Source: a virus (Duplodnaviria > Heunggongvirae > Uroviricota > Caudoviricetes). Taken from it: a DNA stretch of 4,362 nt. A program made the translations under genes and the position numbers. Below the pieces are notes generated by a model. The model worked only from the letters and a program-made list of their open reading frames with translations, was not told the DNA's origin and did no database searches. This document shows, one piece after another, positions 990 through 4,362 of the stretch; position 1 is the first letter of the stretch; the number at the start of each line of letters is the position of its first letter. The stretch is from IMG/VR virus record IMGVR_UViG_2663763220_000004. One strand, 5' to 3'.

Positions 990-1054
990 GGATATTTATC
1001 AGGATTTATCGGCAACAAATAACGAGCCAACTTATATACGCCTTTTAAGATAAG

Positions 1055-1684
1055 TCAGCCCCGGCTGGATCCAGTCATCAGGCTCTTTCTTAAAGGGGGA
1101 GTATTGAAATCACGAAGAAGAGCCTCCCGCACCGCAGCATCCATGTCTGCACCACTGGCAAGTGCTTCAATCTCTGCCGCCACCTGCAAATACCCCATGC
1201 AACGGCCAATGCGTTTCATAACTCTGGTGTTTTCGTCTTTCAGGCATCTGATAGCGAGATTAATAATTTTCAGGCAGTGATGATGCGATGCCCGGACAGG
1301 TTTTCCGTTCTCATAAACGACGAACTCACCCTCTTCACAGGAAACCCTGAAAGGCCGATGGGGTTCCTGGTCTTTATCCGGTGCAGACGCAATAAAATCA
1401 CTTTTATGCTCTTCCTCTCCGGCACTGTTAACCGTAATGACGTACTCAGGCCGCAGGTAAGCCGCCTCTTTTTCTGACAATGCGGCCGGTAAAAACTTTT
1501 CCTGCAAAAACTTCATAAAAGTCTCGTGAGCGACTTTGTGGCAGTAATCGTAAATCGCCGCATAATGCTCATCGCGGCGTTTGTTTTCATCTTCAGAACT
1601 CACCAACGCCGACAATTTTTTATTAAGCTCAGTGATTTCATTTTCCAGGTGATTGAATCGCTGATTCATTTCTTCATGCTTCAT
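1055..1684 (-). CDS. Hypothetical 209-aa soluble protein of unknown function, inserted between holin and endolysin; no family recognised
   Basis: Intact ORF with a good SD (GGGGAGAG about 6 nt upstream of the ATG) lying inside the 3' end of the upstream holin copy, with stop-to-start spacing of 3 nt. No predicted TM segment or signal peptide. Acidic, coiled-coil-like N-terminus (NQRFNHLENEITELNKKLSAL), a central beta-like segment (YVITVNS...FRVSCEEGEFVVYENGKPV), and a His/Cys-containing C-terminal helix (RASHHHCLKIINLAIRCL). Confidence 0.7.
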   Translation of the reverse strand: MKHEEMNQRFNHLENEITELNKKLSALVSSEDENKRRDEHYAAIYDYCHKVAHETFMKFLQEKFLPAALSEKEAAYLRPEYVITVNSAGEEEHKSDFIASAPDKDQEPHRPFRVSCEEGEFVVYENGKPVRASHHHCLKIINLAIRCLKDENTRVMKRIGRCMGYLQVAAEIEALASGADMDAAVREALLRDFNTPPLRKSLMTGSSRG

Positions 1685-1687
1685 TAT

Positions 1688-1865
1688 TTACTCTCCCCGT
1701 GCAGCCTTACGCTTGTCTTCTCTTATTTTGAAATACAGATTCGTCAGATAAGTCAGAAGCCCCAGAAGCAGACTTCCCAGCACACCAATCGCAGCCCACT
1801 GTGATGGCCTGACCTGATCCAACCACTGCAAAAACCAGTAGCCGGCACTGCCGGCGGAGGGGCCG
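1688..1865 (-). CDS. Second S21-type holin copy, 3' portion only (5' end lost in the N-run); divergent from the copy at 1889..2104
   Basis: My translation in the holin frame gives ...[58 protein letters not shown]. This differs from the upstream copy at four residues (T/P, S/R, V/L, F/L) plus several synonymous changes. The ORF-track ORF 1707..1889 covers this region in the wrong frame. Confidence 0.7.
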
Positions 1866-1875: not shown

Positions 1876-1888
1876 AATGATGGCGACA

Positions 1889-2104
1889 TTATTCACCTCT
1901 CGCAGCCTTACGCTTGTCTTCTCTGATTTTGAAGTACAGATTTGTCAGATAAGTCAGGAAGCCCAGAACCAGACTCCCCAGTACACCAATCGCAGCCCAC
2001 TGTGACGGACTGACCTGATCAAGCCACTGTAAAAACCAGTAGCCAGCACTGCCTGCGGAGGTGCCGTAGGCAATGCCCGTTGAAATTTTGTCCATGGATT
2101 TCAT
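1889..2104 (-). CDS. S: Class II pinholin, phage 21 S21-type, with dual-start motif (Met1-Lys2-Ser3-Met4)
   Basis: 71 aa, [71 protein letters not shown]: two TM segments, the first Gly/Ala-rich, and a charged C-terminus. Near-identical to S21 as I recall it. Strong SD (GGAGGTGAGGCT) before the ATG. Confidence 0.9.
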
Positions 2105-2160
2105 AGCCTCACCTCCGCAAATAACGGATGGCGTAGTTTTACACTGAGAAATGAAAGGGA

Positions 2161-2187
2161 TTTGAAAAGAAAAAACCGCAAAAGCGG
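2161..2187 (-). terminator. Weak candidate intrinsic terminator on the minus strand, downstream of the tRNA array
   Basis: Short hairpin CCGC-TTTT-GCGG (4 bp stem) followed on the minus strand by TTTTTTCTTTTC. The stem is short, so this is marginal. Confidence 0.3.
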
Positions 2188-2264
2188 GCGAAACGATATA
2201 TACAATAAGGAAAGCACTCTATCCAACAAACCACTCACAGTTAATCGGAATAAAAGCAGAGTGC

Positions 2265-2337
2265 TTATGAATGATCGCCTGCCCGAAGGTTAGTATTTCT
2301 GCACAGCAATTTTGCAAAAAAAAGCGATCATTCATAA
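2265..2337. repeat. Perfect 14-bp inverted repeat (TTATGAATGATCGC ... GCGATCATTCATAA) with a 45-bp spacer, in the tRNA-holin leader
   Basis: Seen directly: arms at 2265-2278 and 2324-2337 are exact reverse complements. The spacer contains an A8 run and TTGCAA. Confidence 0.85.
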
Positions 2338-2396
2338 CTTAAACGTCTTTCAGTCACTCCGGGATTTCCCATCATCGCAGACTGAAAGACTCTGAC

Positions 2397-2471
<75 letters not shown>

Positions 2472-2474
2472 ATA

Positions 2475-2550
<76 letters not shown>

Positions 2551-2552
2551 AC

Positions 2553-2629
2553 TGGACCGCCACCGGGGACTCGAACCTCGCACACTCAACTTAAAGGGTT
2601 GACGCTCTTTCCTGATGAGCTAGTGGCGG
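2553..2629 (-). tRNA. tRNA of uncertain identity: anticodon loop CCTTTAA, so anticodon would be UUU (Lys) but with C at position 33; alternatively a degenerate Arg-type tRNA
   Basis: Reverse complement CCGCCACTAGCTCATCAGGAAAGAGCGTCAACCCTTTAAGTTGAGTGTGCGAGGTTCGAGTCCCCGGTGGCGGTCCA: acceptor CCGCCAC/GTGGCGG, D-stem GCTC/GAGC, anticodon stem TCAAC/GTTGA, T-loop TTCGAGT, encoded CCA. Unusual features are a 5' C, C33, a 9-nt D-loop and a T-stem mismatch. Confidence 0.55.
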
Positions 2630-2630
2630 T

Positions 2631-2690
2631 TGGTGGCCCTTGCTGGATTTGAACCAGCGACCTGGCGATTATGAGTCGCTCGCTCTCACC
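2631..2690 (-). tRNA. ileZ: tRNA-Ile2-like (gene anticodon CAT, ileX/ileZ type), 5' end truncated by the N-run
   Basis: Reverse complement ...GGTGAGAGCGAGCGACTCATAATCGCCAGGTCGCTGGTTCAAATCCAGCAAGGGCCACCA closely matches E. coli ileX as I recall it (...GCAGGCGACTCATAATCGCTTGGTCGCTGGTTCAAGTCCAGCAGGGGCCACCA). Anticodon loop CTCATAA. The acceptor 5' strand and D-arm fall in the Ns. Confidence 0.75.
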
Positions 2691-2700
2691 NNNNNNNNNN
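2691..2700. other. Run of 10 N: assembly or scaffold gap of unknown true length, interrupting the 5' end of the Ile tRNA
   Basis: Literal n characters. About 16 nt of tRNA would be expected here but only 10 positions are present, so the Ns do not represent true length. Confidence 0.95.
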
Positions 2701-2800
2701 CGCAGGATAATAACGTTACGAAATCAATGTTGCAAGCATTCAAAAATCACCCTTATCTCCTCCACCAGCGCATTCACCATGTCTATCCGAGATAAGTGGC

Positions 2801-2824
2801 ACAAAAAACCCGCTTGTGGGCGGG
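2801..2824 (-). terminator. Intrinsic terminator (tR'-like) between the late promoter and the tRNA array; also looks terminator-like on the plus strand
   Basis: GC-rich hairpin ACCCGC-TTGTGG-GCGGGT (6 bp stem, 2807-2824) followed on the minus strand by TTTTTT (2806-2801); on the plus strand it is followed by TTTTGTTTGCTTTTG. Confidence 0.6.
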
Positions 2825-2878
2825 TTTTGTTTGCTTTTGCCATCACGTACAAAATCGGCAAAGTATCAGATTTGCATG

Positions 2879-2907
2879 AATATATGCCTTTCAATCTACT
2901 TTTGCAA
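2879..2907 (-). promoter_or_regulatory. Candidate sigma70 late promoter (pR'-like) immediately at the 3' end of the Q-like gene
   Basis: Minus strand reads -35 TTGCAA (2907..2902), a 17-bp spacer, then -10 TATATT (2884..2879). About 10-20 nt downstream is a -10-like GATACT (2867..2862) that could act as a sigma-dependent pause element. The predicted ~70-nt transcript would end at the terminator at 2801-2824. Confidence 0.45.
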
Positions 2908-3585
2908 CACTTTGCTTTGAAAATGCCGTCTTTTTTTTGAACGTGTTCTCATTACAAACAATAAAGCCTCACTATCCAGTCGGTGAAAAATGTGTTTCAT
3001 TGCAACCCAGTGACGAGTAAATGTTTTGGACCAGTTTTTAGTTGTCACTCCCGCCAGTAATGCCAGCTCCTGGTATTCATAACCTTCCCCACCAAAAAGT
3101 TCTGCTTTTACTGCCTGCGCCGCCAGCCAGATTAATTTTTTCAGGCGTTCCTGCGTTTTCCCTGCAATTTTTCTGGTACCGGATTGAGCATTAAATTCAT
3201 TCCACGCCCACTGTGTTATCGCGATCTGATATTCCCAACAAATACTCCCGCTGTAACACCACAACAACCAGGCTTTATAGTGCTCTTCAAGAGACAGAAC
3301 AGCCCGCCGCCACGATGATGTCGAAAACTCAACCGGACTGACCAGAGGAATTGACGTCCCCTTCGCCAGCGATTGCTTTCCCGGGATTGGTGGATTATCC
3401 CGCGTTATCATTTTTCCAGTCACTTCATCGCGGTACCGGATTTTTTTACGCCTGTAACGCCCTGTATCGAACATGGCATTCTCTTGCCAGGCTTCAAGCT
3501 GACCTTTTGTTGCCCCACTCAAATCAGCGGTGGCGATAATGAGCTGCTCACGCACAAACTGTAAATACTGGTTATTCATGCGCAC
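2896..3585 (-). CDS. Putative late-gene antiterminator (Q-like), assigned mainly by position; family not confirmed
   Basis: 229-aa ORF directly downstream of rusA (10-nt overlap) and directly upstream of a promoter/terminator pair, tRNAs and the lysis cassette, which is the canonical Q slot. C-terminal region has an HTH-like segment (YQELALLAGVTTKNWSKTF). No similarity to lambda Q that I can see. Confidence 0.5.
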   Translation of the reverse strand: MRMNNQYLQFVREQLIIATADLSGATKGQLEAWQENAMFDTGRYRRKKIRYRDEVTGKMITRDNPPIPGKQSLAKGTSIPLVSPVEFSTSSWRRAVLSLEEHYKAWLLWCYSGSICWEYQIAITQWAWNEFNAQSGTRKIAGKTQERLKKLIWLAAQAVKAELFGGEGYEYQELALLAGVTTKNWSKTFTRHWVAMKHIFHRLDSEALLFVMRTRSKKRRHFQSKVLQK

Positions 3586-3941
3586 CCCAGTTCTGTGATT
3601 TTTATCCCCAGCCGCCCACCAGGAACGAGCTGACCGCGCACAATATTGATTTCATCAAACTGCTCGTCGTCTATAAGTAGTCCAGCATGCGTCAGCGCAT
3701 CCAGCGGTGCCTTCAGGATATTGTCCAGGTCACGACGGCGCTTATCCGGTGGCTCTGCAATAATCTTTATCGCCAGCCTTCCGGACAGGTTTAATTTCAG
3801 TCGCTGCTGGCGAACAATTAGCGCCACATCACGGCGATAACGCTCACCGGCTTTTGATACAAAATATGTGCTGCCACGACGTCGCCAGTAGGTGTTCACC
3901 GTTGGCGGGTAAGGCAAAACAAATTCTATGCGTTCGGTCAT
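3576..3941 (-). CDS. rusA: RusA-family Holliday junction resolvase
   Basis: 121 aa with conserved RusA blocks: LPYPPTVNTYWR, PDKRRRDLDNILKAPLDALTHAG..DDEQ (catalytic Asp cluster), GGRLGIKITELG. Alignable by eye to E. coli RusA (120 aa). Confidence 0.9.
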   Translation of the reverse strand: MTERIEFVLPYPPTVNTYWRRRGSTYFVSKAGERYRRDVALIVRQQRLKLNLSGRLAIKIIAEPPDKRRRDLDNILKAPLDALTHAGLLIDDEQFDEINIVRGQLVPGGRLGIKITELGCA

Positions 3942-4283
3942 TTATGCTTTCCACTTCAGAACACCCGAATTTCTCGCGTGCATTAAAAAACGAATCAGCA
4001 ACAACAACTGACTACCGTGTTTTTCTTCAAAATCTTTTACCCCGGCGTGTAGTTCGTTATGGCATTTACGACACAGCGGAATAACAAACAAATCGTCAGC
4101 CTTTGTTCCCATCCCTCCCAGTCCATGACCAATGATGTGGTGCGGATCATCTGCCTGATTGCCACACGTCATGCATTTCTGCGTTTTTACCCAGCGCGTG
4201 TATACAGGCATCTCTTCCCGTTGTGGTTTCTGGCGCTGGAGATACTGAGCCGGAGATTCCGGATCAACGGCAATGCTGACCAC
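3942..4283 (-). CDS. Small zinc-finger/HNH-like protein typical of the nin region upstream of rusA (possibly DUF1364/YbcO-like); start uncertain (4283, or the internal Met at 4211 giving 89 aa)
   Basis: Motif C-x2-C...DPHHIIGHGLGGMGTKADDLFVIPLCRKCHNELH, i.e. paired CxxC with a His-rich HNH-like core. Its stop abuts the rusA start. The internal ATG at 4211 is preceded by GGGAAGAG. Confidence 0.55.
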   Translation of the reverse strand: MVSIAVDPESPAQYLQRQKPQREEMPVYTRWVKTQKCMTCGNQADDPHHIIGHGLGGMGTKADDLFVIPLCRKCHNELHAGVKDFEEKHGSQLLLLIRFLMHARNSGVLKWKA

Positions 4284-4362
4284 CGTCTCTTCCTGTGGTG
4301 GATTCTGTTGCTGGTGGGCGTGAGGCAGCGGCGCAAGATTTTTTGTGCGCTGCTTCAGTATG

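Follow-up and report, generated by a model that had tools for sequence, protein, structure and literature searches.

Is a gene that lies between the pinholin gene S and the SAR endolysin gene R of a lambdoid prophage an unusual insertion, and what would its product do there? The question is raised by ORF209, a reading frame at positions 1055–1684 on the minus strand of a 4,362-nt stretch of virus DNA (IMG/VR record IMGVR_UViG_2663763220_000004; this whole stretch is called the window), located from the list of open reading frames, its match to PHROG 1085 and alignments A1–A3. A first-pass annotation had regarded the gene as an unrecognised insertion into a cassette of the phage 21 type, in which the endolysin was said normally to follow the holin directly, and had listed defence or superinfection-exclusion cargo, a regulator of lysis timing and a moron of other function as candidate roles. 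The position itself deserves attention, as the S-R slot of phage-21-type lysis cassettes, those of many Stx phages included, is a hot spot of module shuffling.

The reading-frame list, profile matches and a tRNA search identified the minus strand of the window as the late region of a lambdoid prophage. The order begins with a DUF968/HNH gene (3942–4283 and past the window end), followed by rusA (3576–3941), the antiterminator gene Q (2896–3585), a tRNA cluster between Q and the pinholin gene, and a complete phage-21-type pinholin gene of 71 codons (1889–2104), all on the minus strand. Downstream of ORF209, on the same strand, are the SAR endolysin gene R (456–989), a SAR-type lysozyme by its Pfam Phage_lysozyme match (E 5e-24) and the lysozyme annotation in E. 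coli CFSAN029787 (locus L001), then Rz (55–474) and, embedded in it, an ORF for an Rz1-type lipoprotein (45–239), the usual two-component spanin arrangement. The tRNA cluster consists of Gly, Thr and Lys tRNA genes, the only ones reported by ARAGORN on the window, and a fourth tRNA gene, which is tRNA-Ile in those complete genomes that match and is split here by a run of Ns at 2691–2700.

ORF209 starts with an ATG at 1682–1684 (minus strand), encodes 209 amino acids and ends with TGA. The upstream holin frame ends ...GCA CGG GGA GAG TAA, with the stop at 1688–1690, and is followed by ATA and then by the ORF209 ATG. A good Shine-Dalgarno sequence, GGGGAGAG, was read at 1691–1698 on the minus strand, 8 nt before the ATG and within the last holin codons, and a spacer of 65 nt precedes the start of R at 989. 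The frame, its own strong Shine-Dalgarno sequence, the 3-nt stop-to-start spacing and the 65-nt spacer had all been described before, and each can be read directly from the sequence. At E ≤ 1e-3, 132 homologues were found, with pairwise dN/dS values against relatives of 0.24–0.65 that point to purifying selection on ORF209. An identical 630-bp CDS is annotated as WP_001300760.1 in complete genomes, including that of E. coli CFSAN029787, and S. flexneri SFBU1023 and E. coli ECMA0423 carry this ORF too. Homologues, dN/dS and the annotated identical CDS thus mark ORF209 as a genuine gene and not a chance reading frame. No mention of WP_001300760 was found in the literature searched, and genome surveys of Stx phages do not discuss the slot gene.

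The ORF209 product is mildly acidic (pI 6.1), and its highest 19-residue Kyte-Doolittle mean is 0.76. No hydrophobic segment and no signal-like N-terminus were detected in a hydropathy scan. Pfam gave no holin or spanin match, and none of the features looked for in a membrane lysis protein (transmembrane segment, SAR domain or lipobox) was found. The description of the product as soluble in the first-pass annotation agrees with these values. On the coding strand near the gene, neither a promoter-like site nor a terminator of its own was observed. ORF209 would thus be transcribed only with the Q-dependent late operon, as had been supposed. The protein can be divided into a coiled-coil N-terminus (residues ~1–63), an acidic variable middle (64–108), a conserved C-terminal domain (109–197) and an out-of-frame tail (198–209), which is considered below.

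The holin sequence directly before ORF209 had been taken for a duplicate copy of the complete pinholin gene. The two are separated by a run of Ns at 1866–1875, a gap between two different lysis cassettes that the first-pass annotation had passed over. The left flank (59–1865) is 99.1% identical to E. coli CFSAN029787 (L001), where the same ORF is preceded by a complete 216-bp holin gene, and by this identity positions 1688–1865 (minus strand) are the last 178 nt of the pinholin gene that belongs before ORF209, cut by the assembly gap. The right flank (1888–4362) is 95.8% identical to a different genome, TUM2826 (L002). Before the N-run it reads TAATG and then TCG CCA TCA TT, which is the start (14 nt, 1876–1889, minus strand) of a different SAR endolysin allele (MSPS...), with its ATG overlapping the TAA stop of the complete holin gene. 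An exact 22-nt match to this start was found in nine loci. In six of them (L051, L055, L058, L062, L066 and L070) S abuts R, and the L051 sequence translates to a lysozyme beginning MSPSLRK; a lysozyme was not detected on the remaining three. The window thus joins a direct S-R cassette to an S-ORF209-R cassette, the partial holin gene being a contig end at a scaffold join, and the two cassettes are expected to come from separate prophages. A tandem duplication of the holin gene was ruled out by the 22 differences among 178 positions between the partial holin (1688–1865) and the corresponding stretch of the full one (1889–2066), by the different flank matches, and by the complete genomes that carry ORF209, which have a single holin gene (1050 bp there against 1251 bp in the window). 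The second N-run, at 2691–2700, replaces 19 nt of TUM2826, so the N-runs are gaps of unspecified content and not length-preserving masks. Where prophage cassettes are repeated, scaffold gaps between them can look like a duplicated gene, as the window illustrates.

To what extent the S-gene-R order is exceptional was addressed by a survey of the best 80 loci with an S21 holin in IMG/VR, 73 of which also hold a lysozyme. A slot gene was present between S and R in 47 of these 73 (64%), and S abutted R in the other 26. The gap from S to R, when filled, measured 374, 399, 418, 671, 692, 877, 888, 1085 or 1263 nt. Identical holin proteins were found with and without a slot gene, and the slot gene is thus dispensable for the lysis machinery. 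Most filled slots carry only the DUF1327 head described below, without the C-terminal domain. The gp05 gene of Stx2 phage 86 is a slot gene as well, as is ydfR in the Qin prophage of E. coli K-12. At all 80 IMG/VR loci that encode the C-terminal domain, a holin match ends 7–8 nt upstream wherever that DNA is present, and in the window, as in L001, L086 and L087, 3 nt separate the holin stop from the ORF209 start. The expectation that the endolysin directly follows the holin was therefore not borne out by the related prophages, in which an S-gene-R backbone is common. This is largely the outcome that the first-pass annotation had named as refuting its interpretation. The order seen in the window is not unusual, and ORF209 is an ordinary, slightly damaged family member in a commonly occupied slot.

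Decay of the slot was also frequent. Among GenBank phages, 438 records hold an S21-type holin, 101 a DUF1327 gene and 20 an ORF209 match, and the matching records include many Stx1a, Stx2a and Stx2c phages. DNA similar to part of ORF209 was found in 1066 of 5426 complete E. coli genomes, often reduced to a 187-nt 3′ remnant without annotation or to an annotated pseudogene of YdfR. Further broken slot alleles are P0074, L156 and L157. The slot is thus a hot spot of both recombination and decay. In ATCC 25922 (L089 1299–2225) and in ST131, a truncated YdfR pseudogene and the 187-nt 3′ remnant of the C-terminal domain lie before the lysozyme gene.

No Pfam, NCBIfam or PADLOC match was obtained for ORF209, in agreement with the earlier failure to recognise it as any lysis, defence or regulatory family; it is, all the same, catalogued in PHROG 1085, a family annotated as of unknown function (E 1.2e-73, 249 bits, residues 1–209). 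The gene is thus already present in RefSeq and in PHROGs as a hypothetical protein, and its finding is mostly ordinary. The earlier interpretation holds as far as a real, soluble gene of the late transcript is concerned, and fails for the notable insertion and, as described below, for the HEPN-like motif.

The full-length match to PHROG 1085 spans only profile positions 117–288 of 296, so that ORF209 lacks the N-terminal third and the extreme C-terminus of the profile. This partial coverage is explained by longer homologues. Many of them have 268–333 aa and carry an N-terminal DUF1327 domain (PF07041, 'YdfR family'), and these long members contain every ORF209 module at 44–82% identity. One of them, P0004 (333 aa), shares 82% identity with ORF209 across 94% of the ORF209 length; it matches PF07041 at 6.6e-35, whereas ORF209 gave no PF07041 match at E ≤ 0.1. 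In alignment A1, ORF209 begins past the DUF1327 head and the linker. The absence from ORF209 of this domain of its relatives had escaped the first-pass annotation.

Alignments A1–A3 revealed a modular build, with an optional DUF1327 head, a linker, a coiled coil (LENEIxELNKKLS), a variable acidic middle and a conserved C-terminal domain of ~110 aa. The modules occur as the head only (104–116 aa, for example YdfR of K-12 Qin), head and coil (183 aa), head, coil and C-terminal domain, and coil and C-terminal domain (185–217 aa, with their own MNHEEMNQRF start). By its sequence, ORF209 falls in the headless class with coiled coil and C-terminal domain. Headless forms, with their own start and an adapted N-terminus, make up a populous subfamily. 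The intact members (185–217 aa) include P0006 (217 aa), P0030 (213 aa) and a 213-aa gene of the Stx1a prophage of E. coli 08-00022, and they share build, position and start context with ORF209 at 61–89% identity. The core-motif columns of the C-terminal domain (the His at the start of helix 1, G-R-C-M-G-Y/L-L-Q and A-E-I-E-A) are invariant in A1, and several are invariant or near-invariant in A2 and A3. ORF209 retains them as H136, G160-R161-C162-M163-G164-Y165-L166-Q167 and A169-E171.

A profile search of 1.84 billion representatives returned 39 matches, and a word-indexed profile search added Salmonella enterica 'hypothetical proteins' of the same build. In a scan of 185,579 species-representative genomes, three loci were recovered, all from Escherichia or Shigella. 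The family was found only in Escherichia/Shigella and Salmonella prophages in these searches. In Salmonella and in contig L091 the family gene lies between Q and the holin gene, and S overlaps R there; such Q-X-S relatives are at L084 4001–4918, L092 4001–4801 and L091 134–943. The Q-X-S relatives adjoin toxin-antitoxin genes (ParE/HTH, HicAB), and the holin of L092 belongs to a different family, PF16080.

Three-frame translation, repair by a single C and the alignments revealed a feature that had been overlooked, namely a frameshift at the C-terminus of ORF209. Nearly all aligned relatives end ...DFNTPPFKK.P..W..PG.TYLK.RI, and its K, W, P-G and Y-L belong to the very small set of positions that hardly vary when E. 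coli and Salmonella members are compared (A2, A3). The intact headless relatives keep PPFKK.P..W..PG.TYLK.RI, whereas ORF209 has LRKSLMTGSSRG in its place. It ends PPLRKSLMTGSSRG, in which the conserved P-P-F-K..P..W..P-G..Y-L is absent, and ORF209 thereby lacks 5–6 of the 17 near-invariant positions of the family. At the site, a run of five C at 1095–1099 (minus strand), the coding strand reads ACT CCC CCT TTA AG. One added C restores the family frame and gives a 217-aa product with a tail identical to that of P0004. The 1-nt loss shifts the last 20 codons out of frame, and 12 unrelated residues replace the tail. The displaced native tail, FKKEPDDWIQPGLTYLKRRI followed by a stop, is still encoded at 1032–1094 (minus strand) in the −1 frame relative to ORF209 and carries the near-invariant K, W, P-G and Y-L.

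The five-C allele was seen in L001, L086 and L087, at least three complete genomes checked directly, and in 11 of the 80 IMG/VR loci; five further complete genomes are near-identical across the ORF209 locus. Its presence in several complete genomes and IMG/VR loci shows that it is not a read error in the window. Before the frameshift, the 197 codons of the ORF are undamaged, and several genomes share the identical sequence. As the displaced tail has acquired no other mutations, the frameshift is recent. The allele occurs in several genomes and on 11 IMG/VR contigs with no additional decay, and so it may still be functional.

The C-run is part of a heptamer, C_CCT_TTA (1091–1097, minus strand; C_CCU_UUA in the transcript), which lies in the correct frame for a −1 slip. 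After such a slip the conserved tail would be back, with a single Phe-to-Leu substitution. Loss of one C from CCC CCC TTT A creates the heptamer automatically, and folding of the 71 nt downstream gave a structure no better than those of shuffled sequences (z +0.38), so that no stimulatory RNA structure was found there. Programmed −1 recoding at this site is unlikely. With low probability, slippage could rescue the frameshifted allele in part, giving two products from one gene, and the peptide KKEPDDWIQPGLTYLK would be a candidate marker for the −1 product.

Structure prediction for ORF209 from a 22-sequence alignment yielded an unusable AlphaFold model (pLDDT 51). The model of P0004, built from 81 sequences, showed a DUF1327 head, a domain of ~90 aa, with three strands and a helix (pLDDT 80–96) and a C-terminal domain of three short strands, three helices and a tail helix (pLDDT 77–90), joined by two long helices and disordered linkers. 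The predicted structures gave a helical N-terminus, a beta-rich stretch and then helices, in line with the coiled-coil-like N-terminus, beta-rich middle and C-terminal helix that had been described. A profile search of PDB sequences produced no solved-structure match (best E-value 0.15). Pfam scans of 81 family members returned only DUF1327 and scattered coiled-coil noise, and no structural or sequence relative of known function was found for the C-terminal domain in these searches. This most conserved piece of the slot is still without a Pfam model.

The R-x4-H spacing of the C-terminal domain had been compared to a HEPN motif. HEPN nucleases combine R-x4-6-H with an all-helical bundle, whereas R131-x4-H136 of ORF209 is located at a strand-to-helix junction and the P0004 model predicts a domain of three strands and three helices. 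R131 is Pro in most E. coli relatives and variable in Salmonella, and H136 alone is conserved among the aligned relatives. The HEPN interpretation was rejected because the Arg is not conserved, no HEPN match was found in Pfam or PADLOC and the predicted domain is not all-alpha. The Cys of the reported C-terminal His/Cys feature is also not a family trait, as C137, which follows the His triplet, is replaced by Ser in most E. coli relatives and by Arg in the aligned Salmonella sequences.

A possible link between the family and host RNA turnover comes from YdfR, the one experimental lead met in the literature searched, and it concerns the partner domain. Residues 1–72 of YdfR interact with Rne 1–597 in a bacterial two-hybrid assay and co-purify with Rne 1–598, and RNA co-purifies with YdfR (PMC13232886). 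The part of RNase E bound by YdfR is its catalytic half, and RNA binding by YdfR is possible; its overproduction altered few transcripts (PMC13232886). YdfR/DUF1327 proteins (K-12 Qin YdfR, Stx2 phage 86 gp05) occupy the same slot as ORF209, directly after the S21-type holin, and like it they belong to the late operon and are of unknown function. ORF209 differs from them in having no DUF1327 domain and in beginning at the coiled coil. Since it shares no residues with the 103-aa K-12 YdfR, the RNase E binding of YdfR 1–72 is not directly transferable, and the RNase E data reach ORF209 only via the domain fusion in its relatives.

Because relatives fuse the C-terminal domain to DUF1327, and YdfR is reported to bind RNase E, host RNA turnover is the probable target to be considered. 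ORF209 would be a non-essential accessory gene of a lambdoid prophage, located in a recombination-prone slot between pinholin S and SAR endolysin R, and a 1-nt deletion in a C-run has exchanged the family's most conserved tail for 12 unrelated residues in the ORF209 lineage. The family would act late in infection, in the cytoplasm, as an oligomeric adaptor, with a C-terminal domain whose probable target is host RNA turnover and not the envelope. Such a late cytoplasmic adaptor linked to RNA turnover is the most likely of the roles considered for the family, and yet a tentative assignment that we hold to be possible and somewhat doubtful. The explanation of ORF209 taken whole, as an accessory slot gene, a headless member of a modular family, frameshifted and with an adaptor role, is mildly favoured. 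Without the RNase E-binding head and the invariant tail, the ORF209 allele itself would be attenuated or partner-dependent; most likely it is either attenuated or reliant on a partner that shares the coiled coil. A bolder form, in which the C-terminal domain is a new effector module brought to RNase E by the DUF1327 head and joined by headless forms through the coiled coil, is quite improbable. If true, a gene inside the lysis cassette would let lambdoid and Stx phages redirect the decay of host RNA. The tie between DUF1327 and RNase E (PMC13232886) gives a testable lead for the whole family, and what value the locus retains comes from the C-terminal domain, which has no name, and from its being joined to a domain that binds RNase E.

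The constant linkage of the family to lysis genes counts against the adaptor, as it fits a lysis-related role equally well. The main rival to the adaptor is thus a cytoplasmic regulator of lysis timing, whose target would be either the pinholin, at its charged cytoplasmic C-terminus, or the still unreleased SAR endolysin, and which would in this way tune the moment of lysis. It is consistent with a family that always adjoins lysis genes even where its position changes (S-X-R in E. coli; Q-X-S in Salmonella and contig L091), with the 3-nt coupling of the ORF209 start to the holin stop and with expression from the late transcript only. Such a regulator is nevertheless unlikely. The absence of a slot gene from 26 of 73 S21 cassettes, with the same holins occurring in both states, argues against a required partner; most filled slots hold a DUF1327 head without the C-terminal domain; ORF209 has no membrane segment; and the pairing of a Salmonella relative with a PF16080 holin argues against a specific holin contact. 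Accessory lysis genes are found within lysis cassettes of other phages, as with RIII of T4, which is cytoplasmic, LydB of P1 and LysA/LysB of P2. Like ORF209, these are small late genes nested among lysis genes; ORF209 has no sequence or fold similarity to them, and many cassettes with identical holins lack a gene of its type.

The loss of 5–6 of 17 near-invariant positions, the frequency of decay in the slot (P0074, L156 and L157 are broken) and the pseudogenes and 187-nt 3′ remnants in many genomes, ATCC 25922 and ST131 among them, would also suit a dead remnant that rides in the late operon and yields no functional product. We regard this as rather unlikely for the ORF209 allele, given 197 codons that are intact before the frameshift and identical in several genomes, and a displaced tail whose freedom from further mutations speaks for a recent event. 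The headless subfamily is populous, so the missing head is not in itself a sign of decay. Cargo that protects the lysogen, by defence or superinfection exclusion, is highly improbable. A moron of this kind would be at home in a position that is hypervariable and prone to recombination and that holds many alternative modules as well as small convergent genes, which is typical of cargo hot spots, and in a narrow family of moderately fast evolution (dN/dS up to 0.65). With no promoter-like site of its own, however, ORF209 would be silent in the lysogen, and ydfR of Qin has almost no RNA-seq reads under standard growth (PMC13232886). The check for a defence family that had been suggested gave no match in PADLOC (zero families of PADLOC-DB v2 at E ≤ 0.1), the HEPN-like motif lacks conservation, and ORF209 showed no feature of an enzymatic or transmembrane effector.

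Small genes on the opposite strand accompany some members of the family. A convergent gene of 90–105 aa (phrog_1853, annotated as of unknown function) follows the family gene in E. coli, Salmonella and a metagenome contig, at L003 3493–3807, L090 2652–2924, L092 4807–5124 and L094 585–902 (all minus strand), and was present at 20 of the 80 IMG/VR loci. Where a slot has a different C-terminal module, the convergent gene differs too (phrog_2572 or phrog_25324). As these small genes run antisense to the late transcript, the lysogen could express them. A dependence of the C-terminal domain on a phrog_1853 partner, the loss of which would explain the frameshift, was considered and rejected, as the domain is intact at 47 of the 80 loci although the partner is missing there. 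The Stx1a prophage of E. coli 08-00022 has an IS1 element (L090 2966–3660) in the same slot, between the convergent gene and the lysozyme gene.
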